Positions 24,104 to 55,235 of a stretch of DNA of 64,000 bases are shown piece by piece (position 1 is the stretch's first letter; each line of letters begins with the position of its first letter). Below the pieces are notes generated by a model. That model was not told the origin of the DNA, did no database searches, and saw only the letters and a program-made list of their open reading frames with translations. Origin of the DNA: an uncultured virus (IMG/VR IMGVR_UViG_3300011334_000503) (lineage: Duplodnaviria; Heunggongvirae; Uroviricota; Caudoviricetes); the IMG/VR virus record IMGVR_UViG_3300011334_000503; one strand, written 5' to 3'. The translations under genes were made by a program, and so were the position numbers.

Positions 24104-26584
24104 TTATCTTTGAACTGCTCTATTTGCTGCAGTGAATCCTCCTCGATTAACTAACTTTATTGGTCCTGATGGATCGGATATCACGTATCCTTCGCCGCCT
24201 GATTCATCTCCTATAGAAGCTTTTACTCCTAGATCTTGAGAATCTAACTGAGCTATTATGGAGTTCTTTAGGTTGTTTATAGCTTTTACTGCATTGAATA
24301 TCTTTTCTAGATCTGACTGATTCTGTTGAGAATACTCTATCATTTTGGTTTTTTTACCATCACTAATAGTCTTCTCATTCTCCAAGAAATTAATAAACTC
24401 TTTAGCACTAAGCGTATTCATGCTTGCGGCCTTTGAATTCGTAAACTTGTATAGCATGTCAGCGTAATCACTCATTTTTTCTTGACTAAGCTTGCTTTTA
24501 TCGAGCAGTTTGTCTGCAGATTTAGCGCTAGAGACAGCTGATTTAGCTGCGCTCATTAACTTACTGTCTATCTTAGCTCCACTTTTTGGGAACACCGGTG
24601 AGAACACCATGAGTCCTCCTGCTGGATTGAACTTGTACTGCTTTGCGTCCTTAACTCCTGATTCTTTGCCGTCTAAGGATTGATAAACGTGAGGAATAAC
24701 TCCAACTTCGCTTTTGGTTATCTGCTTTCCTAGTTCGCTATTATCAGGAATCTTGTACGTAGTAATATTCGGTTTGAATACGTATTCTCCGTCTACAACT
24801 TCTGGTTTGCTTTGGTATAATAAGTCTCCTTTGAAGTATCCAGTGAGTCCTTTTGGCCAAGAGTTCTTGAACACATCGTAGGCATTTGCCATGCTTTTTG
24901 CGAAAGCAAAATTGGGTTTTGTTCCGCTCTTTTCGGCAGATTTTATTGCCCTATTCTTGAACATCGTCTCTATTTCTTTAGCGCTCTTAGCTTTTCCGTC
25001 GTATCCTTTTGCTGTGAATCCACTCTTGTCTGTTAGAATAAAGTTACCGTTTTCGTCTACTCCAAACACTACGGCTGGTGATCCGTCCCATTTTACGGAT
25101 GTGGTTGACGGGTCTTTTGCTGCTCTATCCATTACTTGTAAAGCTTTCTCTGCGCCCTTAGATCCGTCCCAATATATTAAGTCTTCTGGGTGTTGGATTC
25201 TGGCCGATGCGGCCTCGAGTAACATGAATAATCTTTGTATCTTTTTTAGGGACTCTTTGAGATCTTCTTTTTTAGGAAGTTCAAGACCGTCTTTTGCTAG
25301 ATCCTGTCTCGCTTGTGCTACCCAATCTTCGTACTGCGGCTTATTCTTTATAAATTTAACGATTGCTTCTACGCTTGTTAAGTCTTCAGGTTTTGCTCCC
25401 TGACCAAGTAACTTAGTTGCTATTTCGCTAGGATTTTTACTTATTACTTTGTTTGTTGCTCTATCTACTAGACCATTAAGATAAGACCATTTCATACCTT
25501 GAGCTTTCGCTATACTAGCCAATACTAAGTGCTTGTGAACTCCTTTGTAAGGACTATCCTTAGCTCCGCCTTGCATAGAGAACTTCATAAATTCAACATC
25601 ATCGTTAAACATAAAGTCTGATTGTACAAATCCATTTTTAGGATCTCCTGCTATTGGAGTCTTTACATGGACATTAGTTCCTGACTTTTTAATGTCTGCT
25701 TTATCTATTCCGTTTGATGTAAGCTTATTTATTAATGAATTTTGATCTATTTTATTTTTATCTACTCCAAGATCGAGGTCTCCGCTATCTGCTTTTTTGC
25801 CAGTAGTTCCAAGCATGCTGTCTTTAAGAGAAAGACCAGACTTGTCTTCTAACCAGTCTATCGTTTTGTCTATGTCTGCTAGTTTGATTCTTTGTGTTCC
25901 TTGAAATACATTTCCTCCCTCAACCAATAAAGTACGAATCAGAGTAGAAAGGACCACCCTCTCTTCTATAATCTCGTATATTGGTTTCGCCTCTTTCATA
26001 GAGGTTGCGAATTTTTTTTTAAGCATTGACTCTATTTCAGAATCATACCAACCAAAAATATCTTTGAACTGTTTTGGTGTTGATTTTGGATTAGATAACG
26101 CTTTTCTTATATTTGTTCCACTCATTTCACCTATTCCTTCAATATCGTAAGAAACGTGAGGAGCTACTACTAGATAACCATGTTCTGTGTACGGTTTTAA
26201 TTCTTTGTTGGGTTCGTACTTTTGAAAGTATGTATCGCCTCCGTCTTTTTTCTTGCCTATCTTGAATCTCGCATCCTCTTGCATATCCTTATCTCCTACC
26301 ATAAACACTATTGCTGTAGTCTCTGGATCATATTTTGATGTGATCTCTTCTGCTTTGTACGGATTTTTTACTTGAACTAACTGATTCGTTATTCCGTACT
26401 TGTTAGCGACAGATCTTTTTTCATTAAAATTAAGAGGACTTTTTGGAGGATCTACCTTATCTGAGGTTGCAATATACGTCTTATCAGATCCAAACTTTTT
26501 TTCTAACCACTTAAAAGCATCATAGTGGTGGCGTCCCATCGGTTGAAAACGACCTGGATATATCGCTATGATATTTTTTATCAT
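24104..26584 (-). CDS. Three-domain protein: cytidylyltransferase-like + Pol-beta-type nucleotidyltransferase + ATP-dependent ligase-like domain
   Basis: IYPGRFQPMGRHH; LGTTGKKADSGDLDL; KWDGSPA...FKGDLLY...EGYV...KLV. Confidence 0.7.
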   Translation of the reverse strand: MIKNIIAIYPGRFQPMGRHHYDAFKWLEKKFGSDKTYIATSDKVDPPKSPLNFNEKRSVANKYGITNQLVQVKNPYKAEEITSKYDPETTAIVFMVGDKDMQEDARFKIGKKKDGGDTYFQKYEPNKELKPYTEHGYLVVAPHVSYDIEGIGEMSGTNIRKALSNPKSTPKQFKDIFGWYDSEIESMLKKKFATSMKEAKPIYEIIEERVVLSTLIRTLLVEGGNVFQGTQRIKLADIDKTIDWLEDKSGLSLKDSMLGTTGKKADSGDLDLGVDKNKIDQNSLINKLTSNGIDKADIKKSGTNVHVKTPIAGDPKNGFVQSDFMFNDDVEFMKFSMQGGAKDSPYKGVHKHLVLASIAKAQGMKWSYLNGLVDRATNKVISKNPSEIATKLLGQGAKPEDLTSVEAIVKFIKNKPQYEDWVAQARQDLAKDGLELPKKEDLKESLKKIQRLFMLLEAASARIQHPEDLIYWDGSKGAEKALQVMDRAAKDPSTTSVKWDGSPAVVFGVDENGNFILTDKSGFTAKGYDGKAKSAKEIETMFKNRAIKSAEKSGTKPNFAFAKSMANAYDVFKNSWPKGLTGYFKGDLLYQSKPEVVDGEYVFKPNITTYKIPDNSELGKQITKSEVGVIPHVYQSLDGKESGVKDAKQYKFNPAGGLMVFSPVFPKSGAKIDSKLMSAAKSAVSSAKSADKLLDKSKLSQEKMSDYADMLYKFTNSKAASMNTLSAKEFINFLENEKTISDGKKTKMIEYSQQNQSDLEKIFNAVKAINNLKNSIIAQLDSQDLGVKASIGDESGGEGYVISDPSGPIKLVNRGGFTAANRAVQR

Positions 26585-26604: not shown

Positions 26605-26832
26605 CTATGGTAATGTAGTAGTGGTAGTAGTCGTACTAGTTGTAGTAGTTGTAGTCGTAGTAGGTGGAGGTGTTGGTGGTACTCCTCCAGCTAAAGCGTC
26701 TCTATCGGTTGAAGCGTAAGCTTTTGGATTTGTAAGTCCATTCAAACTTTGATAAGTGTCTGGAATAACTTGTCCAGAAAAGACGCTCCTATCGGATTTT
26801 GATTTTGCTAGTAAGCTAGAATTCTTTGCCAT
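26605..26832 (-). CDS. Small protein with Pro/Thr-rich C-terminal tail
   Basis: PPTPPPTTTTTTTTSTTTTTTTLP; ATATTTAT motif just upstream of ATG. Confidence 0.65.
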   Translation of the reverse strand: MAKNSSLLAKSKSDRSVFSGQVIPDTYQSLNGLTNPKAYASTDRDALAGGVPPTPPPTTTTTTTTSTTTTTTTLP

Positions 26833-37492: not shown

Positions 37493-37906
37493 GTGGCGTA
37501 TAACCTTAGAAAAATATCGCCCCTTGATCTTAAGCCTTCAACTGGAGTTGGAGTTAAGTTACCTTTTGCTGGACCAAGTGTGTTTACTACTGTATACACT
37601 ACTAAGGAGCAGTTAAAGTACAATATACTTAATTATATGCTTACTGATCTTGGAGAGAGACCTATGAATCCTAATTTTGGAATGGGACTTAGATCAAGAC
37701 TTTTCGAAAGTATTACTGAAAGTACTCTTGATGATATTAAACAATCCATACAAACACAAATAGAGAATATGTTTCCAGTAGTTCAGATACAGAGATTAGA
37801 CGTTATAGGACAACCGGGTTATAACTCTATAAACATACAATTTAGTTATACTATAAAGACTTCTAAAGAAACAGATTCAATACTATTAAAGATACAAAAC
37901 GTCTAA
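37493..37906 (+). CDS. Baseplate wedge protein (gp25-like)
   Basis: NILNYMLT..GERPMNPNFG..L...LFE. Confidence 0.9.
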   Translation: MAYNLRKISPLDLKPSTGVGVKLPFAGPSVFTTVYTTKEQLKYNILNYMLTDLGERPMNPNFGMGLRSRLFESITESTLDDIKQSIQTQIENMFPVVQIQRLDVIGQPGYNSINIQFSYTIKTSKETDSILLKIQNV

Positions 37907-37907
37907 G

Positions 37908-39755
37908 ATGCCTAATAATATAGATGTAAAATACCTAAACAAAGACTTTTCGACGTTTAAAAACGAACTGATAGAATACGCTAAGTCGTACTATCCTACT
38001 GTTTACAACGATTTTAGTCAAGCGTCACCAGGAAGCATGTTCATTGAAATGGCTTCTTATGTTGGAGACGTACTTTCTTTCTACTTAGATAACCAACTTC
38101 AAGAAACTTTCTTACAGTATGCTAAGCAAAAGAATAACTTGTATACCATGGCATACATGCTTGGTTACAGACCTAAAGTCGTATCTGCCGCCATAGTAGA
38201 TCTTGATGTTTACATGAGAGTTAACGCATTAGGCAGCACTCCAAACACTTATCCAGACTGGTCTTCAGCCATAACTATTCAACCTGGAATGCAGGTAAAA
38301 TCTAGTGTATCGAATAACGTTTCTTTTTACGTTCCAAATAAAGTAGATTTTACTATATCTTCTTCAATGGATCCAACAGACGTTAGTGTGTATACTATAG
38401 ACGGATCTGGAAATCCTACAAGCTATCTATTAAAGAAAGGTACTCAAGCTTTATCTGGTCAAGTTAAAACTACTACTTCTACTTTTGGAAACGCACAAAG
38501 GTATTCTACAATCACTGTACAAGACAGCGATATTATATCAGTTCTTAAAGTAGTAGATTCTAGTAATAATGTATGGTACGAAGTTCCTTACTTAGCTCAA
38601 GATTACATACTTAATCCTGTAGAAAACACAGCGTTGAACTATCCTTTTTTGTATCAATACGCTAATCAAGTGCCGTATATGCTACAAAAGGTAAACGTAC
38701 CTAGAAGATTCACAACGAGATTTAAAACAGATAATACTCTAGTTCTTGAGTTCGGACCAGGAATTAATTCTGTAGCAGACTCAGCCGTAGTTCCCAATCC
38801 TAATACTGTTGGTGTGGGACTTACTACTGGATTGACTTTACTAAATACTGCTTTTGATCCAACTAACTTTGTTACTACACAGACTTATGGACTGGCTCCT
38901 CAAAATACTACGCTTACAGTAACTTATCTAGCAGGAGGAGGATCAGAATATAACGTTCTTTCCAATCAATTGACGATTCCTACTTCAATTAGCGCTGGAT
39001 CTGGGGATACTACTACAGTAGTTACAAACAATCCTAATCCTGCTTCTGGTGGTGGAGACGGAGATACAGTAGAAGAACTAAGACAGAATATAGCAGTAGA
39101 GTTCTCAAGTCAATTAAGAGCAGTTACGCAAGAAGACTACTTAGCAAGAGCATTAAGTATGCCGCCTAAGTTTGGAAAAATAGCTAAGGCTTTTATCACA
39201 AAAGACGATGGAACATTTACAAACTACACTAATAACGATCCTAATCAAAAGGATCAGATCTTAGTTAGTATGTATGTTCTAGGTCTTAACAGTAACGGAA
39301 ATCTAGCGGTCCCTTCATCTGCTCTTATTCAAAATTTACAAACTTATATCTCTGAATACAGAATGATGACAGATGCTGTAGACATAAAACCAGCATACAT
39401 AATCAATATAGGTTGTAATTTTGATATAACTGTAAGACCGAACTATACCAGTCAAGATGTTATCTCTAGATGTTTGATTCAACTACAAGAATACTTTAAC
39501 GTAGATAACTGGCAGATCAATCAACCTTTACAGCTATCAGATGTTTATACTTTGCTTGATCAAGTTGTAGGAGTTCAAACAGTTAAGAAGGTAGAAATAG
39601 TAAATAAGACTGGAGTTTCTAGTGGATACTCTGAATTTAGCTACGACATACCTGGAGCTATATTAAACAACGTTATCTATCCGTCTTTAGATCCAAGCAT
39701 ATTCGAAGTAAAATATCCAAATTCAGATATTCAAGGTAGAGTAGTAACAATGTAA
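37908..39755 (+). CDS. Baseplate wedge protein (gp6 / baseplate J-like)
   Basis: DF...K..L, ASYVGDVLSFYLD, LGYRP, GGGDGDTVEELR, RAVT.EDY. Confidence 0.9.
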   Translation: MPNNIDVKYLNKDFSTFKNELIEYAKSYYPTVYNDFSQASPGSMFIEMASYVGDVLSFYLDNQLQETFLQYAKQKNNLYTMAYMLGYRPKVVSAAIVDLDVYMRVNALGSTPNTYPDWSSAITIQPGMQVKSSVSNNVSFYVPNKVDFTISSSMDPTDVSVYTIDGSGNPTSYLLKKGTQALSGQVKTTTSTFGNAQRYSTITVQDSDIISVLKVVDSSNNVWYEVPYLAQDYILNPVENTALNYPFLYQYANQVPYMLQKVNVPRRFTTRFKTDNTLVLEFGPGINSVADSAVVPNPNTVGVGLTTGLTLLNTAFDPTNFVTTQTYGLAPQNTTLTVTYLAGGGSEYNVLSNQLTIPTSISAGSGDTTTVVTNNPNPASGGGDGDTVEELRQNIAVEFSSQLRAVTQEDYLARALSMPPKFGKIAKAFITKDDGTFTNYTNNDPNQKDQILVSMYVLGLNSNGNLAVPSSALIQNLQTYISEYRMMTDAVDIKPAYIINIGCNFDITVRPNYTSQDVISRCLIQLQEYFNVDNWQINQPLQLSDVYTLLDQVVGVQTVKKVEIVNKTGVSSGYSEFSYDIPGAILNNVIYPSLDPSIFEVKYPNSDIQGRVVTM

Positions 39756-46118: not shown

Positions 46119-47150
46119 ATGTCATTTACAGCAATAGCACCAACAGATCTAGTAGTATCTTCAGACTCGGTAACAGCACCAGCATGGAGTACAAATATTC
46201 CAACACTCGCTACTTTTTTTACTTCATCAACTGCAGATAAGACCTATTACTTAGACGTGTATAACGATAGCGTAGGACTTACGAACTCTGCTATTCAATT
46301 CTCTATAGCGTACGGTAATATTAATGGATCCGGATCAGCACCACTAAACTCTCTTATTCCAGGCGTAAGTCCAACAAGGATAAACTTTGGACAATTTAGA
46401 AATATTATATTTGGAGACGCTGAAACTAAATTCAACTTTGGAACCGGGAATACTGGATCACTTGATATGATCGCTATTCAAATAGATAGAAATCGATATA
46501 AAGAAAGTTTATTTCTTGGAACGTTTAATCTAGGACTAAAAGTTGGATCAGATAGTTTAATTCTTACTAATAACTCTAATGATGTAAGCACAGTAACTTT
46601 TGTAGATGGAGGAAGAGTGTATAATATCGTATCAGGTTCTAATGGAAGCGCTCAAAGTAGCCCACTAATTTCAGGAGCTCCCGCTAAAGGATACACTCCT
46701 TCAGGAAGTTACGGTCTTTTTCTTCCAGACATTGGCTTGATTGTTTTAAACCCTAAAGCATTAGGATGTCCAGTAGGTCAAGGAGGATTAGCTATATCAT
46801 TATCATCTACAAATACTCCAGCTGCTAATATATCAAACTTACAAACTGTATATCAAGCTATCTCTGCGAGCGCAAACTTTCAACTTAATTCTCAAGAGAC
46901 TATCTCTTCTGATTATGTGTTCGTAAGAATCCCTAACGCTGGATATAATTACTCTACCAACCCATCATTTGTTTCTGGATCTTCTGGAGAAATGATTTAC
47001 TCTAACTTTATAAACAGTCCTCAGACTTATATCACTACTGTGGGAATGTACAACAATAATAACGAACTTTTGGCTGTAGCTAAATTATCTAAGCCACTAG
47101 TGAAAGATTTTACAAAAGAAGCATTAGTTAGAGTTAAATTGGATTGGTAA
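46119..47150 (+). CDS. Virion structural protein with tail-collar-like C-terminal domain
   Basis: YITTVGMYNNNNELLAVAKLSKP...VKLDW. Confidence 0.65.
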   Translation: MSFTAIAPTDLVVSSDSVTAPAWSTNIPTLATFFTSSTADKTYYLDVYNDSVGLTNSAIQFSIAYGNINGSGSAPLNSLIPGVSPTRINFGQFRNIIFGDAETKFNFGTGNTGSLDMIAIQIDRNRYKESLFLGTFNLGLKVGSDSLILTNNSNDVSTVTFVDGGRVYNIVSGSNGSAQSSPLISGAPAKGYTPSGSYGLFLPDIGLIVLNPKALGCPVGQGGLAISLSSTNTPAANISNLQTVYQAISASANFQLNSQETISSDYVFVRIPNAGYNYSTNPSFVSGSSGEMIYSNFINSPQTYITTVGMYNNNNELLAVAKLSKPLVKDFTKEALVRVKLDW

Positions 47151-47162
47151 TTAAAATAAAAA

Positions 47163-48827
47163 ATGAGTCGCGGACAGAACACTATAAAACGTTCAGAAGT
47201 TTCCACCACTCCTATTTTACTAAAATATTCTGCGTCTTACGATAGCTCATCGTTTACAGCAAATGGTATTACGGTAAATAGAGGAGTAAACACTTCTTTT
47301 GATAGAGATGGAAGTAATTATTTAAACTATGCTCTAGTAAAACAACTTTACTATCAAGAGTATCTTACAGGATCTTTATTATTTAGTTCTAGTTTTTGGA
47401 ATTCTTCGAATCAATCTACCGCCGCTGAAGGAACTTTTGATAATGATTATAGGTATTTTCCTACTAGTTCTAGCGCGCAACTTGCAGTAATAGGAATTTC
47501 TAGAACTTCTTTTGGAGAACAAATAGCTAGAAAAAGTTTAGTAATTACTGGAAGCACATATCGACTAATTGACGACGGAAACGGAAATGTAATAGACACA
47601 TACATTGCAGGATCACAACCATCGACTAATGACGCGTATGCATCATCTGGAGTAAGATTATATTCTCCCGGATATAGCACAAAAGGAACCGGTACAGCAT
47701 TGGAATGGAATACTGCATATGTTGGAGGATCTTATGCTGGTACTTTTTGGACTAATCCAGTAACCGCGAATAGAACAGGTAGATTAAACTACTCAGGTCT
47801 TTGGTCTGCAAAATCATTGACTTATTTTGGAGACTTCGCTATAGATTTTAATATCACTGTTACTGCAGGTACATATTATCTTGGAATAGGTTGTGATAAC
47901 TATGGATCTGTTTATATAGATGATACATTAGTAGTTTCTTTGGGACTTCCAGACGGAAACGGAACTAATTTTAGGCACTGGCACATATATCCAGTTAGCT
48001 TAACCACAGGGACTCATACAATAAAATATATAGTAACAAATGCAGGCATCCCAGATCCAAGCAATCCTGGAGCGATGGGTATTGAAGTATATAATAATAC
48101 TCAAACACAAATATCTGCTAGTATAGCTGCATCTCCAATGGGATCATCTATTCCAGGAGGACTTAATATTATATATTCTTCAAAAGATTATTTAACTAAT
48201 ACAACATATACTCAAAATAATCATGTAGGAAATATATTATATTCTCAAGGCGTGATTATTATCACAGACGAGGAATATCAATACGCGATGATTCCGTATT
48301 CAGGTCCTCCAACTACTACAACGACTAGTACAACGAGCACCACTACAACCGCGACTCCAACTACTACTACGACTAGCACTACTACGAGTACTACAACAGT
48401 TCCAACGACTACGACTACGAGTACTACAACAAGTACTACAACAGTTCCAACTACGACGACTACAACTAGTACCACTACGAGTACGACTACTGTGCCAACA
48501 ACAACCACAACCACTAGTACCACAACAAGCACTACGACAGTTCCGACGACCACAACTACGACTAGCACCACTACAAGTACCACGACGTCTACTACATACG
48601 ATATATATTTAGCGGATCAATATCAGTGTTCTGATTGTACAGTTAGCTCTGCGAATGTGCTTGTTGCGTTTCCAACTGGACAATCGGTGGTAATAGGAAG
48701 GTGGTATCCCGATGGCAATGATGCTCTTCATACTTATAAAATACTCAGTACGTCAACTGGTGCAGGTTACATACTAACTAACGCGTACGGATCGTTTACT
48801 AGTTGCGCTTCTGCCTGTATCATATAA
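47163..48827 (+). CDS. Tail-associated protein with PA14-like domain and mucin-like Thr-rich tract
   Basis: AGTYYLGIGCDNYGSVYIDD...VSLTTGTHTI (PA14-like); about 95-aa T/S/P tract; Cys-containing tip. Confidence 0.7.
   Translation: MSRGQNTIKRSEVSTTPILLKYSASYDSSSFTANGITVNRGVNTSFDRDGSNYLNYALVKQLYYQEYLTGSLLFSSSFWNSSNQSTAAEGTFDNDYRYFPTSSSAQLAVIGISRTSFGEQIARKSLVITGSTYRLIDDGNGNVIDTYIAGSQPSTNDAYASSGVRLYSPGYSTKGTGTALEWNTAYVGGSYAGTFWTNPVTANRTGRLNYSGLWSAKSLTYFGDFAIDFNITVTAGTYYLGIGCDNYGSVYIDDTLVVSLGLPDGNGTNFRHWHIYPVSLTTGTHTIKYIVTNAGIPDPSNPGAMGIEVYNNTQTQISASIAASPMGSSIPGGLNIIYSSKDYLTNTTYTQNNHVGNILYSQGVIIITDEEYQYAMIPYSGPPTTTTTSTTSTTTTATPTTTTTSTTTSTTTVPTTTTTSTTTSTTTVPTTTTTTSTTTSTTTVPTTTTTTSTTTSTTTVPTTTTTTSTTTSTTTSTTYDIYLADQYQCSDCTVSSANVLVAFPTGQSVVIGRWYPDGNDALHTYKILSTSTGAGYILTNAYGSFTSCASACII
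48312..48596 (+). repeat. Coding Thr-rich tandem repeat, unit about (V/T)PTTTTT(T)STTTSTTT
   Basis: Directly visible; all four Thr codons mixed. Confidence 0.95.
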
Positions 48828-48862
48828 GTGATAAAAAATAGTATATAAATTAATAAATTGTT

Positions 48863-49819
48863 ATGAAAAATTTACGCTACATGTGTGCTCAGCCAAGACT
48901 AGTATACTACGCTTGGCAAGTAGAAGTTATGATCAATAACTTTATCAAGCACGGAATTAACCCAAACAACATAGATATCCTGGTCGCTTGGAATCCTAAC
49001 GACGATACTAGCAAGCCAGAAACAGTAGAGATGTGGAACAAATTAGCATCTCATTATAACACAGTAAGGTTCTTTTTTTATCAAGATACCAGAGAGCAAC
49101 CAATTCGCTACATATCTTCGATAAGACCAAATGTACTTAAGCAACATTTTAAAAAGCATCCAGAACTTCAGTACGAAGCAATATTCTACCACGATTGCGA
49201 TATAGCTTTCACTAAGAATCCAGACTTCTCTAAGTTTTTAGATGACGACATGTGGTACTTAAGCGATACCAATAGCTATATCAACTACGACTATATAATA
49301 TCTAAGGGACAAGACGTTTACGACAAGATGTGTGAAATAGTAAAGATGCCCAAGATGATTCCTAAGCTCATGAACGATCATTCTGGCGGAGCTCAATACA
49401 TACTTAAGAATATAGATTGGATGTTCTGGGATAAAGTAGAAACAGATTCTGAGAAGCTTTATTACGAGATATCTCAATTGAATAATCAAAAGAAAGCTTT
49501 AGATCCTAGTCACCATGAATTACAAATATGGTGTGCAGATATGTGGGCAGTTTTGTGGAACGGATGGATAAAAGGACACGAGACTCAAGTAGTAAAAGAA
49601 ATGGAATTTTGTTGGGGAACAGATTCTTTAAACCGATGGGAAGAGGTAACTATATATCATAACGCAGGAGTTACATGCTCTTGTGGAGGAAAGTTTTACA
49701 AAGCTAATTACAGGGATACCCTACCATATAATTTAAGTCTTCGAACAAAAGACGATAACTGTAGTCACTTATATTACCAAGAAATTAAAGAAGTAGAAAC
49801 TAAAACTTGTTTGCTATGA
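48863..49819 (+). CDS. Glycosyltransferase resembling peptidyl-Ser/Hyp O-glycosyltransferases (GT96/GT95-like)
   Basis: YYAWQVEVM, Y..SIRP..L...F, YHDCDI (DxD), GGAQY, WCADMWA. Confidence 0.6.
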   Translation: MKNLRYMCAQPRLVYYAWQVEVMINNFIKHGINPNNIDILVAWNPNDDTSKPETVEMWNKLASHYNTVRFFFYQDTREQPIRYISSIRPNVLKQHFKKHPELQYEAIFYHDCDIAFTKNPDFSKFLDDDMWYLSDTNSYINYDYIISKGQDVYDKMCEIVKMPKMIPKLMNDHSGGAQYILKNIDWMFWDKVETDSEKLYYEISQLNNQKKALDPSHHELQIWCADMWAVLWNGWIKGHETQVVKEMEFCWGTDSLNRWEEVTIYHNAGVTCSCGGKFYKANYRDTLPYNLSLRTKDDNCSHLYYQEIKEVETKTCLL

Positions 49820-50580
49820 AAAAAATAGGAATCGTTATATTGGCCACTAATGCTTACTTTGTTTTAGGAGTTAGATTTATTAAAAGATTTAATCACTTTT
49901 ACAAAGGAGATAGAAAAGTAAAGTTTTATTTCTTTTCGGACCAAGATCCAAAAGATTGTATATCTGAGGACATAGACGTAAGTTATCACTATGATAAGCA
50001 CGATAATTGGCAAGACGGAACTAACTCAAAATTCAAAAACATAGTAGTAATAAAAGAAGACTTAGATAAGGATTGCGATTACGTTTATTATTTTGATGCT
50101 GATACTAATATCCACAGAGATTTTACCGAAGACTGGTTTTTGGGAGATCTGGTTGGAGGAGAACACTACGGTAATCGAGATTGGTTGAAAAACGGAGCTG
50201 GATTCGATAGGAATCCTGAGTCTAAGGCTTACGTTCCGTTGGACAGTAAGCTGCCTTACACTTATCACTACGGAGCTTTCTTTGGCGGAAGAACTGATAT
50301 TGTTATTGATTTTTGTAACACTCTTATAGACTATCAGATAGAGGACAAGAAAATAGGATACGAACCGGGAGTTAACGACGAGAGTTATATAAACAAGTAC
50401 TTTCATTTTAATCCTCCAACGTACACAGTGCCTTGCGATAAGTTTGCTTTCGCAATAAGCGATAAGGGAGGAATAGGAGATACTAGATATCCTACGCTAA
50501 ACGTGTCAGAGATAAAAGATCAGATCTTACAATTGAAATACGATATTTTCGATATTAAAGAGGGAAAAGTCTATGAGTAA
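49816..50580 (+). CDS. GT6-family glycosyltransferase (ABO/alpha-1,3-Gal(NAc) transferase-like)
   Basis: KIGIVILAT..Y, YYFDAD, YHYGAFFGG, NDESYINKYF; ATGA overlap with upstream gene. Confidence 0.85.
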   Translation: MKKIGIVILATNAYFVLGVRFIKRFNHFYKGDRKVKFYFFSDQDPKDCISEDIDVSYHYDKHDNWQDGTNSKFKNIVVIKEDLDKDCDYVYYFDADTNIHRDFTEDWFLGDLVGGEHYGNRDWLKNGAGFDRNPESKAYVPLDSKLPYTYHYGAFFGGRTDIVIDFCNTLIDYQIEDKKIGYEPGVNDESYINKYFHFNPPTYTVPCDKFAFAISDKGGIGDTRYPTLNVSEIKDQILQLKYDIFDIKEGKVYE

Positions 50581-51427
50581 AGTAATAATATACACGACTC
50601 ACTATATAAAACCAGAGTTCATAAAATTACAATACGAGCAGTTTAAAAAGTATTGTAAAGACAATTACGAACTGGTGATAGTTAACAACGGAAAAGACAC
50701 CGAGTTAGAAGATCAAATAAGAGACGCGTCGTCTTCGCTAGGATTAAGATGTATAGACTTTGAAAAACGAAAAGACGTTCCGTTGTTTTGTTCTCAGCAT
50801 CACACAGTTTGTTTAGAAAATATTTTAAAAAATCACATAAAAAAAGACGATCCACAAAACTTAACCGTAATTACAGACAATGACGTTTTTCCGTTTAGAC
50901 CGTTCAGCTTCTTAGAAATTATAAATGGAAAAAAAGTTGGAGGTATGTATCAACAAAGAAATTATCATGGAATAGAACATGAGTACGTAGCCTCTATATT
51001 CATGATGTTTTATAATGACGTAGATATGTCTGATTTTAGTTTTCATAATGGAGTTGGAGATACAGGTTGCGGAACTTTTACGCTTCTAAAAAAGTATGAT
51101 ACAGAATATGTAAAACACACTGCCGCGATAGATACAGAAAAAGATTACATATTCACAGATAACAATAGACAATTTCCCTATTTAGAAAAGTATAGGTGTC
51201 AATTTATACATAATTGCTTTATACACTACTATCGAGGATCTAACTGGTCAGAATCCGATCCTAATTACCATGAAGAGAAAATGAATTTTTTATTATCCTT
51301 TTTAAATGATAAAAATAGTTATGGAATAAATTTAGACAGTAATGTATGCTATGGTACCGCGCATTCTGATAAAGGATATAATGGAGTAGATCATAACTAT
51401 AGAAATTATAAATTTGTAACAAAGTAG
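50573..51427 (+). CDS. GT-A fold glycosyltransferase-like protein
   Basis: ELVIVNN, ITDNDVFP (DxD), GDTG, HYYRGSNW. Confidence 0.6.
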   Translation: MSKVIIYTTHYIKPEFIKLQYEQFKKYCKDNYELVIVNNGKDTELEDQIRDASSSLGLRCIDFEKRKDVPLFCSQHHTVCLENILKNHIKKDDPQNLTVITDNDVFPFRPFSFLEIINGKKVGGMYQQRNYHGIEHEYVASIFMMFYNDVDMSDFSFHNGVGDTGCGTFTLLKKYDTEYVKHTAAIDTEKDYIFTDNNRQFPYLEKYRCQFIHNCFIHYYRGSNWSESDPNYHEEKMNFLLSFLNDKNSYGINLDSNVCYGTAHSDKGYNGVDHNYRNYKFVTK

Positions 51428-51440
51428 TATTTATTAGTAC

Positions 51441-51743
51441 ATGCCAATAGCTTATTCCCCATACACGATGTCATTTCAAGCTCAGACTACAATATACCAA
51501 AACGAGGTTCGGTGTCATGTAAATGAGAACGATTTTAATTATACTCAGAATCCAAGCGCAACTATTTCTGGATCCTTTGGACAATACGAAAACGGTATCA
51601 CAGGATCAGACTTTAAGCCTTATGCGACTACAGTTGGATTGTACAACGATAAAAACGAATTGATAGTAGTAGGAAAACTTTCTACACCTTACCCAATTCC
51701 TTCAAACACAGACATCACATTTGTTATTAAGTGGGATAGCTAA
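51441..51743 (+). CDS. Stand-alone tail-collar-like domain, paralogous to C-terminus of 46119..47150
   Basis: FNYTQNPS...YATTVGLYNDKNELIVVGKLSTP...IKWD. Confidence 0.75.
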   Translation: MPIAYSPYTMSFQAQTTIYQNEVRCHVNENDFNYTQNPSATISGSFGQYENGITGSDFKPYATTVGLYNDKNELIVVGKLSTPYPIPSNTDITFVIKWDS

Positions 51744-51764: not shown

Positions 51765-52244
51765 ATGAATTGGTTATACGAAAATAAAGAAATGAAACAG
51801 TTATCGGATTTCCCAGAAAACTGTGTTGGTTTTGTCTACGTTATTAAGAACAAAGAGAACGGTAGGATCTACGTAGGTAAAAAGATTCTACACAATAACC
51901 TCACAAAGAAACTTACTAAAAAAGAGATAGAAGCTTGGATAAAACCTGGTAGAGTACCAAAGAAAAGAAAAGAAGTAAAGGAAAGCAATTGGCAATCCTA
52001 CTACGGAAGTTCCAAGACCCTGCTCGAAGACATTACCAAACTTGGTAAAGAGGGATTCGAAAGACAAGTACTAAGACCTTGCTATACCAAAAAAGAGTTA
52101 AGCTACTACGAAGTTTATTATCAAATAAAGATGGAAGTTTTACACATAGATTCTTATAATGAGAATATAGGCGGTAAGTTCTTCCGTAAGGATACAGGCC
52201 AGATCCTAGAACAGTCCCAAGATAATTCCGGGACTGCTGGATAG
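51765..52244 (+). CDS. GIY-YIG family endonuclease (Seg-like)
   Basis: GFVYVI.N..NGRIYVGKK, YYGSS, YNENI. Confidence 0.8.
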   Translation: MNWLYENKEMKQLSDFPENCVGFVYVIKNKENGRIYVGKKILHNNLTKKLTKKEIEAWIKPGRVPKKRKEVKESNWQSYYGSSKTLLEDITKLGKEGFERQVLRPCYTKKELSYYEVYYQIKMEVLHIDSYNENIGGKFFRKDTGQILEQSQDNSGTAG

Positions 52245-52262: not shown

Positions 52263-53255
52263 TTAATACATTAACTCCCTCTGAACTATCTTGTCCAAGA
52301 AGTCAGGATGATTACTAAGATTAAATTTAGAATCAAATATCCAAGTATAAGGGATGTTTTTAGTGGGTCTTTTTTCTCCATGCGATATTGCGATGTGTTT
52401 CCAAAAGAAACAGGTTTTATCTTCTACGTTCAAGTACTTCTGACTTGTCATCGGATTAGAAGGGTGATTAACTAGGGTGGCCATCTGATCTAGCCACATA
52501 TCTGCTTGTTTGTTTTCAGGTATAAAGTCTCCGCTCTCGTTAATAGTGTACTTCACCTTACCGTTTAGGTTCTGTCCTCCAAACACTTGATGCAGACCAT
52601 CGAAGTGACCAGTGCCACCAAAAAGAATAGACTCTGGATTAACTAAGTGAGGATAACTCATTGCGATGTATCTTGCAGTATTTTTGCAAGGATACAGCGG
52701 ACTTCTAAAGTTTTGGTGTTCCTTAAAGTACTTCTCAAGAATCTTTGCAAATCCCATCATTGAGTAAGGAGTGCCTCTCTTTTCGGCTTCGTCAAGAACG
52801 TACGCAAGATCCTTAGCAGCTTTTCTTGGTCCTTCTAAAAGCCAATCCTTAACGTTAGTTCCCTTAGGATAATATATCTGAAACAGATCGTTTCTAGCGT
52901 GTCTGTTCTCAACAAAGAATTCCCTTGTCGCGTCCTTACCCTCTGTCATTAATTTTGTTAGAGTTCCCCAATGTTCGTTAGAGAAAGAGAAAACAAGGGT
53001 ATAGTACATCCTTAGTTCGTTATCTGTAACAGATTGCATAAGATCACAGTAAGGATGCTCGTGCCAGTGAAGGCGATGAGAGAATATCTGATACTCGTCC
53101 TTCAATAGATCGTCTTGCCTATCGTCGAACTTCTTACAGAACTCAAAGAACTTATCGATCCTTTGATCTAGAGTCCAATCCCTCATCCAAGAGTCTTTTG
53201 GTTTTTTACCTTTGAATTCTACTTCGCACGTATTTGTGTAAACTATTTGGCTCAT
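52263..53255 (-). CDS. Putative DNA base-modification protein (aGPT-PPlase/amino acid:DNA transferase-like), paralogue 2
   Basis: C-terminal NVEDKTC and FGGTG, shared pattern with the neighbour; family call is tentative. Confidence 0.35.
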   Translation of the reverse strand: MSQIVYTNTCEVEFKGKKPKDSWMRDWTLDQRIDKFFEFCKKFDDRQDDLLKDEYQIFSHRLHWHEHPYCDLMQSVTDNELRMYYTLVFSFSNEHWGTLTKLMTEGKDATREFFVENRHARNDLFQIYYPKGTNVKDWLLEGPRKAAKDLAYVLDEAEKRGTPYSMMGFAKILEKYFKEHQNFRSPLYPCKNTARYIAMSYPHLVNPESILFGGTGHFDGLHQVFGGQNLNGKVKYTINESGDFIPENKQADMWLDQMATLVNHPSNPMTSQKYLNVEDKTCFFWKHIAISHGEKRPTKNIPYTWIFDSKFNLSNHPDFLDKIVQRELMY

Positions 53256-54427
53256 AATGTGTAAAGTGCTTTTACTTTTTCTTTGTATTGTTGTTCTGTC
53301 ATGTTAACAGCTTTGATAATTTTATCATCTGATGGGTGATCCTTAATTCCGTTAAAAGAAGGAATTAGATTAAGATCAAGCATTGCCTTCTGACGACCGT
53401 ATGGATGATCCTTTATTGTAGAACTGTTCCACACGTGGTCGAAATCAAGGTGATCGTAATCAGAACCAGGTTTTACGTAGTTCTCAATCCACCTAATGAA
53501 GTCACATGCAACGTCCTCCATGTTGTACGGGACTTCGCCAGTGTCTTCGTATACTTTTTGCATAACAGAATCTAAGAAAGTGATTTCATCCATCTTGATA
53601 GACTTCTTAGCTAAGTAACTGATACACTCTTTGGCGTTGGTACCGTAATAGAATACCGACTCTCGGTTTACAAAATCAGGGAACCAGTCAGCGACATCAG
53701 CAATGAATGCTGCGTACTGAAACTTGTAAGCTCTAAGACCGTTATCCTTGTTCCAAGCAAACATGAAGTCACCGATTTCCCTAAGATTCTTTTTAGGTCC
53801 TGTCTCTAAGAATGTGGCTACTGCTTCAGATAGTTGTGGTAAGAATTCACACATAAAATAATCTCCACCTCTCTTGTACTTGCCTTGTGGTTTTGGAAAG
53901 CTAGGAAACTGGTATCCTACTGATGTGTAGAAAGGTCGCCAAGCCCCTTTGATGATATCAACCATCTGTGGAATGTTATCTGCCTGATGCATCTCAAACA
54001 AAAGTGTGTTGTGATAACCAGAAGGCTTCTTAGCGTAGTTAATACCTGATCCTGTAAGACGGTGAAACAAAAGTAGATAGATCCACTCTTTAAGACCAAA
54101 CACTTGCTGCTTACCAGTCCAGTTCTTCGCTACAGTTTCTCTCTGTTTAAAACAGAGTCCCTGCTCCATCTTTTTCCAATAAGGATGATCTTCTGTCCAT
54201 CCGTAAAACACGTCGTTAACGATCTGAGAGAATCCAGCATACTTGCGTTCTACTACATCGTAGAGTTCAACGTGAAGCATAAGATCATCTTCGATGCCGC
54301 ATGTAGCGTGCTTTTCTATTCCTAGATTACAAAGTTCTTGTTGCTTTTTTGCTAGAGTGTAATAGTAAATAAACTCTTCGTAATACCTTGTGGGTTGTAT
54401 CCACTTTGACGATGGTGTAGTACTCAT
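53252..54427 (-). CDS. Putative DNA base-modification protein (aGPT-PPlase/amino acid:DNA transferase-like), paralogue 1
   Basis: LYDVVERKY, AFIADVADW, YYGTNA, NMEDVACDFIRW; family call is tentative. Confidence 0.4.
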   Translation of the reverse strand: MSTTPSSKWIQPTRYYEEFIYYYTLAKKQQELCNLGIEKHATCGIEDDLMLHVELYDVVERKYAGFSQIVNDVFYGWTEDHPYWKKMEQGLCFKQRETVAKNWTGKQQVFGLKEWIYLLLFHRLTGSGINYAKKPSGYHNTLLFEMHQADNIPQMVDIIKGAWRPFYTSVGYQFPSFPKPQGKYKRGGDYFMCEFLPQLSEAVATFLETGPKKNLREIGDFMFAWNKDNGLRAYKFQYAAFIADVADWFPDFVNRESVFYYGTNAKECISYLAKKSIKMDEITFLDSVMQKVYEDTGEVPYNMEDVACDFIRWIENYVKPGSDYDHLDFDHVWNSSTIKDHPYGRQKAMLDLNLIPSFNGIKDHPSDDKIIKAVNMTEQQYKEKVKALYTL

Positions 54428-54434
54428 TAAAAAC

Positions 54435-55235
54435 TTAATTGTGTGATTGTTGACTAATATAAATATCGTTAGCTGATAAATTTCTTGCTTTTATTCGATC
54501 GAATACAGCGCTAACCTGCTGAGTATAGAAGTTCTCGTCTGATACTAGCGGAGCCTCTTCGTTAACCCATTCTTCCTTAGCGTGACCGAATCCCATGATC
54601 TTGATGTACCTGTGGCCTCTCTGATTCGAAGCGATAGACTTTACTTTCTCCGTAGCTTCCAACTGAGTCCTTGCCATAACGCAACAAGCGTAATCCCTAC
54701 ACACGTTCCAATTGTTAATGATAAGCCTTTCATCTTCGTAGTGTAGGTAGTATACGAGCATTGGTACGTATTCGCTAGACTCTCTCTTTTCCCTTTCCAT
54801 TTCGGCTCTTGCCCAATCAACGTACCAGTTAAGAACGTGGTCATCTACTTGGGTATCGTACTGAAACAATTGAAAGACTTTCCAAGAATCTAGCGCGTAC
54901 TTACCCACGCCGTACATTTTTTCTAATTCAAATAATGGAATCTCAGCAGAATCGTACTTTCTAACTAGCTCTATCCACTGCATAGAGAACGTCTTCCACG
55001 CTTTGGCCCGTTTGTTATAGAATCCTAAGATCTTGATCATCTTAGCGATCTCTGAGTCCTCTGCTAACACTAGCTTTTCTGGAGTTGGGAACCTCTCAAA
55101 GAATTCGTGACGAATCTGGTCTACTTGTTTGTGACTTGTTTGATTGAGCATGAAGCATACCATTAACATTTTCCATGGGTCTTCGCGATACTCTTCTTGA
55201 CGTGTCTCGTAGGGAGAGGTTGGTAGTTTGTACAT
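54435..55235 (-). CDS. HhH-GPD DNA glycosylase (MBD4-like) with C-terminal extension
   Basis: QE..REDPWKML..CFMLNQTS, LGFYNKRA, GVGKYALDS..VF, DDHVL..Y. Confidence 0.85.
   Translation of the reverse strand: MYKLPTSPYETRQEEYREDPWKMLMVCFMLNQTSHKQVDQIRHEFFERFPTPEKLVLAEDSEIAKMIKILGFYNKRAKAWKTFSMQWIELVRKYDSAEIPLFELEKMYGVGKYALDSWKVFQLFQYDTQVDDHVLNWYVDWARAEMEREKRESSEYVPMLVYYLHYEDERLIINNWNVCRDYACCVMARTQLEATEKVKSIASNQRGHRYIKIMGFGHAKEEWVNEEAPLVSDENFYTQQVSAVFDRIKARNLSANDIYISQQSHN

Follow-up and report, generated by a model that had tools for sequence, protein, structure and literature searches.

A candidate phage-encoded O-glycosylation cassette adjoining a threonine-rich protein gene in an uncultured T4-like phage

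Do the glycosyltransferase (GT) genes of a tailed phage serve to decorate the threonine-rich protein encoded immediately upstream of them? The question is raised by a 64,000-nucleotide (nt) stretch of DNA from an uncultured member of the Caudoviricetes (IMG/VR record IMGVR_UViG_3300011334_000503), the whole of which is referred to here as the window. Four consecutive open reading frames (ORFs) are concerned: ORF1, which encodes a candidate acceptor with a long Thr/Ser tract, and ORF2, ORF3 and ORF4, which encode three putative GTs (Table 1). With a probability of roughly two in three, we read this locus as a phage-encoded, mucin-like O-glycosylation cassette for a virion protein, operating in the cytoplasm and with ORF2, an orphan enzyme resembling family GT8, as its initiator.

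Table 1. Features of the window that bear on the proposed cassette, and its neighbours
Feature	Position	Strand	Basis or context
ORF1, candidate acceptor, modular, 554 amino acids (aa)	47163-48827	+	ORF call and alignment to relatives
Thr/Ser/Pro tract of ORF1, 95 residues (aa 384-478), proposed O-glycosylation acceptor	48312-48596	+	Composition
ORF2, glycosyltransferase 1, 318 aa, orphan phrog_4417	48863-49819	+	PHROG E 1.3e-61; GT8-like retaining GT-A model
ORF3, glycosyltransferase 2, 254 aa, GT6	49816-50580	+	Pfam PF03414, PDB alignment, phrog_3317
ORF4, glycosyltransferase 3, 284 aa, orphan DxD GT-A, proposed extender	50573-51427	+	Model
Possible second acceptor, 75-aa ORF ending PPTPPPTTTTTTTTSTTTTTTTLP	26605-26832	-	Between SbcC-like nuclease gene and 826-aa gene
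Baseplate-wedge subunit genes	37493-39755		Upstream of ORF1
100-aa ORF directly 3′ of the cassette	51441-51743	+	Context; cassette membership only possible
segE-type GIY-YIG homing endonuclease	51765-52244	+	Pfam 7.4e-29; directly after the cassette
Two conserved-looking ORFs, 330 and 391 aa, without family	within 52263-55235	-	3′ of the homing endonuclease
HhH-GPD (endonuclease III/MutY-like) protein, 266 aa	54435-55235	-	E 9e-12, far below cut-off

The tract that makes ORF1 a candidate acceptor is composed of 72 Thr, 13 Ser, 5 Pro, 4 Val and 1 Ala residues, in agreement with the Thr/Ser/Pro tract of about 95 residues described in the first-pass annotation of this DNA. At the DNA level it is a degenerate tandem repeat with a 48-nt unit (~4.5 copies, 76% matches), and its composition is, therefore, far from chance. 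A 101-aa poly-Val ORF on the opposite strand is the antisense mirror image of the tract, and not a gene. The protein is modular, with an N-terminal anchor (aa 1-145 and 353-376), an insert of ~207 aa (aa 146-352), the tract, and a 74-aa Cys-containing C-terminal domain. The insert was recognized as such because the alignment of the anchor to relatives, of which 172 were found, resumes at aa 353-376, which correspond to aa 151-174 of those proteins. Neither the whole of ORF1 nor its pieces belonged to a Pfam or PHROG family, and a head-protein PHROG match (E 0.002 over 110 residues) was disregarded. The earlier designation of ORF1 as a tail protein was, accordingly, not confirmed, its basis being the position 3′ of the baseplate-wedge genes. 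The PA14-like domain that had been assigned to it fared similarly, with no Pfam match at E-values up to 10 for the whole protein or its pieces, and with weak leads for PA14 (PF07691) in the Atlas, where the feature score was 0.75, and structure rows with PA14 clusters gave template modelling (TM) scores <0.4 on a poor model. A true PA14 domain was found at aa 259-355 in five of the 120 relatives listed, after the anchor and thus at a position that differs from that of the ORF1 insert. The insert is possibly PA14-like.

The three enzyme genes follow ORF1 on the same strand, after a gap of 35 nt and then with overlaps of 4 and 8 nt, and no plus-strand terminator-like site was found between the cassette genes. 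ORF calls and motifs thus bear out the earlier description of three tightly packed DxD-containing genes behind the tract, the last two of which overlap their upstream neighbours. A T4-type late promoter word, TATAAATT, lies 19 nt before ORF2; 16 such words occur on the plus strand of this AT-rich window, and the word was not taken as evidence. Scans of the window for sigma-70 promoters and terminators were at background.

ORF2 is a member of a large family that has no name beyond its PHROG number. The family comprises 3665 matches among 3830 candidates, with at least 858 representatives at 50% identity. No Pfam (E-values up to 0.1 or 1) or NCBIfam family, including Glyco_transf_8, was detected for ORF2. 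Sequence comparisons of ORF2 and ORF4 with solved structures, extended to a profile search for ORF2, gave nothing meaningful, and matches to TALE repeats over 30 residues in these searches were spurious. The AlphaFold (AF2) model of ORF2 has a predicted local distance difference test score (pLDDT) of 96.8 and a predicted TM score of 0.93, and Foldseek retrieved WbbM (1.6e-8), UGGT, LARGE1, XXYLT1, glycogenin, and LgtC. Comparison with VIA ranked glycogenin first (Z 15.4, root-mean-square deviation (rmsd) 3.4, 228 aa), followed by LgtC (14.6), the Skp1 alpha-galactosyltransferase (14.4), and GlyE (13.2). The confident model supports the GT-A fold that had been expected, and places ORF2, as a prediction, closest to GT8-type retaining enzymes. 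The DxD motif is the DCD at residues 111-113; among 44 aligned sequences D113 is invariant, D111 is at least 90% conserved, and Q178 and H266 are also invariant. The motifs W18/Q19, Y83..RP, DCD and WCADMW (W223..M227 W228), pointed out earlier, are present and coincide with the conserved positions of the family. The likeness to GT96 and GT95 that had been drawn from them was not established: the predicted fold is GT8-like, and a weak match to HPAT (PF23452; best E 1.3e-4) was obtained for only 2 of the 44 aligned relatives, and for neither ORF2 itself nor any of eight homologues from isolates. HPAT is also found on 10% of the members of one neighbouring Atlas cluster.

ORF3 is, by its sequence, a true GT6 enzyme that retains the DXD and catalytic-Glu motifs. 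It matches PF03414 with an E-value of 1.8e-16 (60.3 bits, cut-off 25), and GT6 chains of the PDB with E-values from 4.8e-16 (BoGT6a of Bacteroides ovatus) to 1e-9, the human ABO transferases scoring ~1e-12, over ~200 aligned residues. The score against NCBIfam NF041524 (Gltr_6) was below the cut-off (87.8 versus 250 bits). Its FDAD aligns to the FNAN of BoGT6a, and its NDESYINKYF to HDESLINKYF, within which the chain of the E192Q mutant has Gln at the position of the catalytic Glu. The GAFFGG and DESYINKY motifs noticed in the first pass are thus those of a GT6 by Pfam and PDB alignment alike, and ORF3 is proposed to be an extending or capping enzyme of the alpha-1,3-Gal/GalNAc type. ORF4 gave no Pfam, PHROG or NCBIfam match. 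Its 42 relatives share a DND motif at residues 102-104, with D102 and D104 invariant in 40 sequences. Its AF2 model (pLDDT 91.8) retrieved BoGT6a (4.1e-6), SpsA, GlcAT-P, TarP, and ColGalT1 in Foldseek, at TM scores of 0.35-0.45, from which ORF4 is predicted to be a generic GT-A enzyme. All three enzymes are, thus, assigned to the GT-A fold as had been anticipated, ORF3 through Pfam and the PDB, and the other two through models.

In the mechanism we propose, the ORF1 protein would carry its Thr/Ser stalk between the body and the small C-terminal domain, as part of the baseplate or fibre module. ORF2, as a soluble enzyme in the cytoplasm of the infected cell, would place the first sugar directly on the Thr and Ser hydroxyls of the stalk, and ORF3 and ORF4 would then extend or cap the chain using nucleotide sugars of the host. 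The assembled particle would bear a mucin-like glycosylated stalk, which may be of benefit through shielding from proteases or antibodies, stiffening of the stalk, or adhesion.

The association of such enzymes with Thr-rich proteins was examined in the 80 best IMG/VR loci of the ORF2 family, 73 of which have at least 1 kb of DNA upstream of the GT gene. A strict tract was defined as a 20-residue window containing at least 17 residues of Ser or Thr, of which 8 or more had to be Thr; ORFs from 60 codons upward were scored. Counting loci with at least 1 kb in the respective interval, strict tracts were found 0-3 kb upstream of the GT in 50 of 73 loci and 3-8 kb upstream in 10 of 61, as compared to 1 of 73 at 0-3 kb downstream, and 1 of 55 at 3-8 kb downstream. 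The upstream tracts are nearly all on the strand of the GT, and a looser rule raised the number of loci with an upstream tract to 55 of 73. When GTs were collapsed at 70% identity, 15 of 21 clusters had a tract upstream versus 1 of 21 downstream (Fisher p=1.4e-5). A reverse test started from 80 sampled viral loci with ten consecutive Thr codons; in 53 of them these codons belong to an ORF that is 80 or more codons long. A GT of the family was found within 3.5 kb in seven of these 53, every time immediately downstream and on the same strand.

Isolated phages provide a second body of evidence. Homologues of ORF2 were found in 77 isolate records, and 12 of these, hand-picked for diversity, were examined; their hosts are Enterococcus, Lactobacillus, Lacticaseibacillus, Levilactobacillus, Lactococcus, Staphylococcus, Clostridium, Arcanobacterium, and Chryseobacterium. 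In 11 of the 12, the gene immediately upstream of the homologue encodes a Thr-rich tract or tail. This gene is annotated as a capsid, tail or structural protein in seven isolates, and a second virion protein is often Thr-tailed as well. The homologue of Enterococcus phage phiFL1A follows the major tail protein gene, whose product ends in NGTTTTTSTTTTTTSSTTTTTTTQASSK, and gp45 of this phage also ends in Thr runs. In Lactococcus phages CHPC836 and 1706, the capsid and the tail-tube or major structural proteins both end in runs such as TTTTTTTTHHD. Thr tails are carried by gp18 of Clostridium phage phiCTP1, by gp074/075 of Lactobacillus phage Semele, and by the upstream gene products of Lacticaseibacillus phage R3.3, Staphylococcus phage PG-2021_4, and Arcanobacterium phage TPWB06. 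The upstream genes of Levilactobacillus phage ENFP1 and Lactobacillus phage LP65 encode TTVAP and TETQTQ repeats, respectively, and two tract proteins are encoded just upstream in Chryseobacterium phage MA9V-3. The exception is Enterococcus phage Planchet, whose upstream capsid gene lacks a tail, and whose tail protein, encoded ~1.7 kb downstream, is Thr-rich over no more than a short stretch at its end. A side observation was made in TPWB06 (L092:3164-3926), where the major tail protein has a run of Thr at its end and an overlapping 68-aa ORF in another frame encodes almost nothing but Thr repeats; it may represent a frameshift-extended form of the tail-tube protein with a longer tag.

Two of these isolates also bear on the nature of the target. 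One possibility is that the three enzymes glycosylate the DNA of the phage, as in T-even phages with hydroxymethylated bases, and that the Thr tract is an unrelated flexible linker. DNA-modifying GT-A and GT-B enzymes of phages are well known. GREB1-type and J-base GTs are described in a published account (PMC7968844). In the window itself, the HhH-GPD-like gene and two genes without family lie 1-4 kb from the cassette on the other strand. The gene content of phiFL1A and CHPC836 argues otherwise. No Pfam GT family was detected in the 65 of their 118 coding sequences (CDS) that were scanned (those of ~105 residues or more), and the ORF2 homologue, flanked by capsid and tail-tube genes with poly-Thr ends, is, therefore, the only candidate GT of these phages. 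The same 65 CDS contained no Pfam family for base hydroxymethylation or hypermodification, the one related match being a small methyltransferase that carries the annotation of a DNA cytosine methyltransferase. A sole GT in a phage without a detectable base-hypermodification family argues for a peptide-directed initiating role, and against a DNA target. Furthermore, the ORF2 family occurs within the late structural modules of small temperate siphophages, right after capsid and tail-tube genes, its link to Thr tracts is strong and directional, and the fold matches listed for ORF2, which has no sequence match to solved structures, are sugar-, lipid- or protein-directed GT-A enzymes. We consider modification of DNA to be very improbable.

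The genes that accompany the ORF2 family were surveyed through the first two ORFs 3′ of the GT, to which 71 loci contributed 133 distinct ORFs. Of the 71 loci, 22 had a Pfam GT (GT6, GT32-type, GT2 or GT25) there; methyltransferases were found in nine, cytidylyltransferase-like proteins in two, and a radical SAM protein, a hexapeptide acyltransferase, and a 2-oxoglutarate (2OG) oxygenase in one locus each. A constant first enzyme with variable partners has the look of a glycan-building cassette. Two further observations concern these partners. An ORF of 286-291 aa without a Pfam family, but with an EHD motif, lies 3′ of the GT in 30 of the 80 loci (e.g., L015:9595-10452) and may encode another orphan transferase. 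In some relatives, a radical SAM/SPASM protein replaces further GTs either as a gene after the GT of the ORF2 family (L012:8954-9982) or as a fusion with it (P0168), an arrangement that hints at chemical tailoring of either sugar or peptide. Fusions were checked in 22 proteins picked from 150 representatives listed, 18 of them longer than 500 aa and four of 403-453 aa. Nine of the 22 contain a second GT domain, namely GT6 in three, GT2 in three (two of which also have a GT32-type region), and a GT7-type domain (GT7C) in three. The extra GT domain is always C-terminal to the ORF2-like domain, and one of the 22 is fused to radical SAM/SPASM.

These arrangements bear on the order of the enzymes. 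The stalk might be glycosylated with ORF2 acting as an extender, the first sugar being added by a host enzyme or by ORF3 or ORF4. Such a role is that of the pneumococcal GT8 enzyme GlyE, which is among the fold matches of ORF2. We think this order quite unlikely, since the homologue is the sole GT recognizable among the larger CDS of phiFL1A and CHPC836, the ORF2-like domain precedes the other domain in fusions, and ORF2 is the constant member of the cassettes while its partners vary.

Several observations weigh against the reading of the locus as an O-glycosylation cassette for a virion protein. ORF1 has no recognized structural-protein family, and its place in the virion is suggested by gene order. 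The first-pass annotation had held that the GTs act on the adjacent Thr-rich protein within a single cassette, and had named GT clusters without Thr-rich partners as an observation that would refute it. The comparative association supports the first point well, with tracts upstream in 55 of 73 loci, and glycosylation itself is proposed. GT clusters of the refuting kind do occur: in the remaining 18 loci, even the loose rule detects no Thr-rich tract within 3 kb of the GT. The tract-less loci include a whole lineage (L015-L026) and close relatives of the window (L012 and L055), in which the ORF1 homologue is a bare 176-aa anchor. In the reverse test, 46 of the 53 poly-Thr loci lack a GT of the family within 3.5 kb, so that tracts need no such GT nearby. 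When the tracts were masked, 56 of 60 tract proteins linked into one modular family; shared ancestry, therefore, explains part of the IMG/VR association, much of which may be inherited synteny. For this reason, the independent weight falls on the 12 isolates, which were of our own choosing. The trio of ORF2 to ORF4 recurs only in L004 and L006 among the 80 loci. The HhH-GPD-like gene and the two genes without family nearby make a DNA-modification role for ORF3 and ORF4 possible. Finally, no sugar, virion proteomics or expression data were found for this phage or for any member of the ORF2 family.

Alternatively, the enzymes might act elsewhere, on host envelope glycans (in exclusion or conversion) or on other virion proteins, with the tract as an unglycosylated syntenic spacer. 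Enzymes of the GT6, GT2 and GT32 types usually build oligosaccharides on sugar or lipid acceptors, and this speaks for such a target, as do the GTs without tracts, the tracts without GTs, and the shared ancestry of the tract proteins, which inflates the association. On the other hand, the candidate acceptors of unrelated phages are themselves unrelated (capsid, tail tube, fibre), and the GT is always just downstream. The models are of compact GT-A domains that start with a strand at residue 4 and, as judged from their secondary structure without a transmembrane predictor, have no evident terminal membrane helix, and lytic T4-like phages would presumably gain little by converting the surface of a dying host. 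A target other than the stalk is, in our judgment, unlikely.

Glycosylation of the Thr-rich protein thus remains the preferred reading, and a wider proposal can be attached to it. The phrog_4417 family might consist of widespread, soluble polypeptide O-glycosyltransferases for which poly-Thr is a portable tag, so that any capsid, tail-tube or fibre protein bearing it would receive its sugar coat in the cytoplasm, with exchangeable extenders and tailoring enzymes (GT6, GT2, GT32-type, methyl- and acetyltransferases, and radical SAM proteins) that diversify the coat. To this generalization we give slightly less than an even chance.

The setting of the cassette is that of a T4-like myophage related to Flavobacterium phages, as judged from the genes of the window. 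These include a gp23-type major head protein, portal, large terminase and prohead protease, as well as an SbcC-like nuclease, primase, PhoH and the segE-type homing endonuclease. For the head protein, identity is 54% with that of the 160-kb Flavobacterium phages vB_FspM_immuto, and 27% with those of T4-type coliphages. The G+C content of the window is ~35%, and no near-identical DNA was found in the isolate phage collection. The cassette forms the end of a long plus-strand block in which the baseplate genes are followed by the gene of a 1388-aa protein, two genes without assigned function, and the cassette. The gene preceding ORF1 (46119-47150) encodes a 343-aa protein whose C-terminal part resembles the product of 51441-51743 (BLASTP, 42% identity over 74 aa, E 9e-12), so that related modules bracket the cassette; counterparts of ~100 aa also lie 3′ of the GT cassette in L012 and L055. 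Homologues of the homing endonuclease occupy the same place in L009, L012, and L055, and its position would fit a spot that is mobile or prone to swaps. The minus-strand genes beyond it may have a function directed at DNA bases.

The only other long Thr/Ser tract of the window is a 20-residue tail at 26614-26673, in the putative gene at 26605-26832, which may encode a second poly-Thr-tagged protein of the phage. No family match was obtained for this ORF, and only one identical copy was found elsewhere. The 826-aa protein encoded next to it (24104-26584, minus strand) has a nucleotidyltransferase-like motif, GRFQPMGRHH, at its start, and the related loci L048 and L062 have, downstream of the GT, very large ORFs with cytidylyltransferase-like domains.

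Glycosylated phage particles have long been thought exceptional. To our knowledge, mycobacteriophages are the one well-studied case, in which glycosylation changes how antibodies see the phage. Virion glycosylation by phage GTs is already known there, and what is likely to be new is the combination of an orphan GT8-like family with a Thr stalk; no description of the ORF2 family, or of poly-Thr glycosylation in such phages, was found in the literature searched, most subscription journals being outside its coverage. If the proposed role is correct, one uncharacterized enzyme family would mark many phages as sugar-coated, among them the 77 isolates, which infect lactic acid bacteria, enterococci, staphylococci and other hosts. 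Under the wider proposal of a portable tag, mucin-like glycan layers would be common on phages whose hosts are Bacteroidota, Bacillota, or uncultured aquatic organisms, and blood-group-like alpha-Gal/GalNAc caps would be possible on the phage of the window. Such coats would bear on phage therapy, through immune recognition and clearance, and on the biology of dairy phages, particle stability, and adhesion. A short poly-Thr tag and one small soluble enzyme could serve as a tool for glyco-engineering, and ORF2 could be tested directly as a possible counterpart, in bacterial viruses, of the enzymes of mucin-type initiation.

Among known systems, that of the mycobacteriophages is the closest in kind. 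Two published accounts summarize how phage-encoded GTs put glycans on virion proteins, forming a glycan shield (PMC11256854, PMC12582341). The present cassette shares with it the combination of phage-encoded GTs and a Ser/Thr-rich acceptor, whose structural role is here suggested by position. It differs from the mycobacteriophage system as described in its constant GT8-like family without a name, in the long, nearly pure Thr stalk of a protein from a baseplate module, in the placement of GT genes directly after the acceptor, and in its hosts, which are Bacteroidota and Bacillota rather than Actinomycetota. None of the 77 isolate records in which ORF2 has a homologue is of a mycobacteriophage. 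Virion glycosylation in mycobacteriophage Che8 and its relatives is reportedly the subject of Freeman et al. 2023 (Cell Host Microbe 31:1216).

Cellular systems offer further parallels. The serine-rich-repeat adhesins of Gram-positive bacteria are O-glycosylated stepwise in the cytoplasm by soluble GTs, with GtfA/B followed by the GT8-type GlyE and others, and GlyE acts as an extender on the pneumococcal serine-rich-repeat protein. Long Ser/Thr repeats, several soluble GTs, and the fold match between GlyE and ORF2 (Z 13.2) are points of likeness, whereas the present acceptor is Thr-rich and viral, and no GtfA/B-type initiator (GT4, GT-B) was seen in the cassette. The plant and algal enzymes HPAT (GT95) and SGT1 (GT96) act directly on peptide hydroxyls; the likeness to HPAT consists of the weak match in two family members and of the matches within one Atlas cluster, both mentioned above. 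Over the whole of the ORF2 model, no structures matched better than those of glycogenin, which glucosylates a protein side chain, and LgtC, both of GT8 (rmsd 3.4-3.6 over 228-235 residues), and ORF2 has the DxD motif. Sequence identity to them is 8-11% and no Pfam GT8 match is obtained, and the relationship is, therefore, one of fold resemblance and not of family membership. Metal-dependent animal GT6 enzymes keep the DXD motif, as does ORF3, unlike BoGT6a, which has NAN in its place. The mucin-type O-glycosylation of eukaryotes, with its GT27 polypeptide GalNAc-transferases, acts on tandem repeats rich in Thr, Ser and Pro, and proceeds by a stepwise build-up that ends, in animals, with GT6-type caps. 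The cassette lacks a GT27-like or lectin domain, but it resembles this system in the dense Thr/Ser/Pro tandem repeats of its candidate acceptor and in its GT6 enzyme; the enzymes of the phage are small and apparently soluble, and would, therefore, act in the cytoplasm rather than in a secretory pathway.

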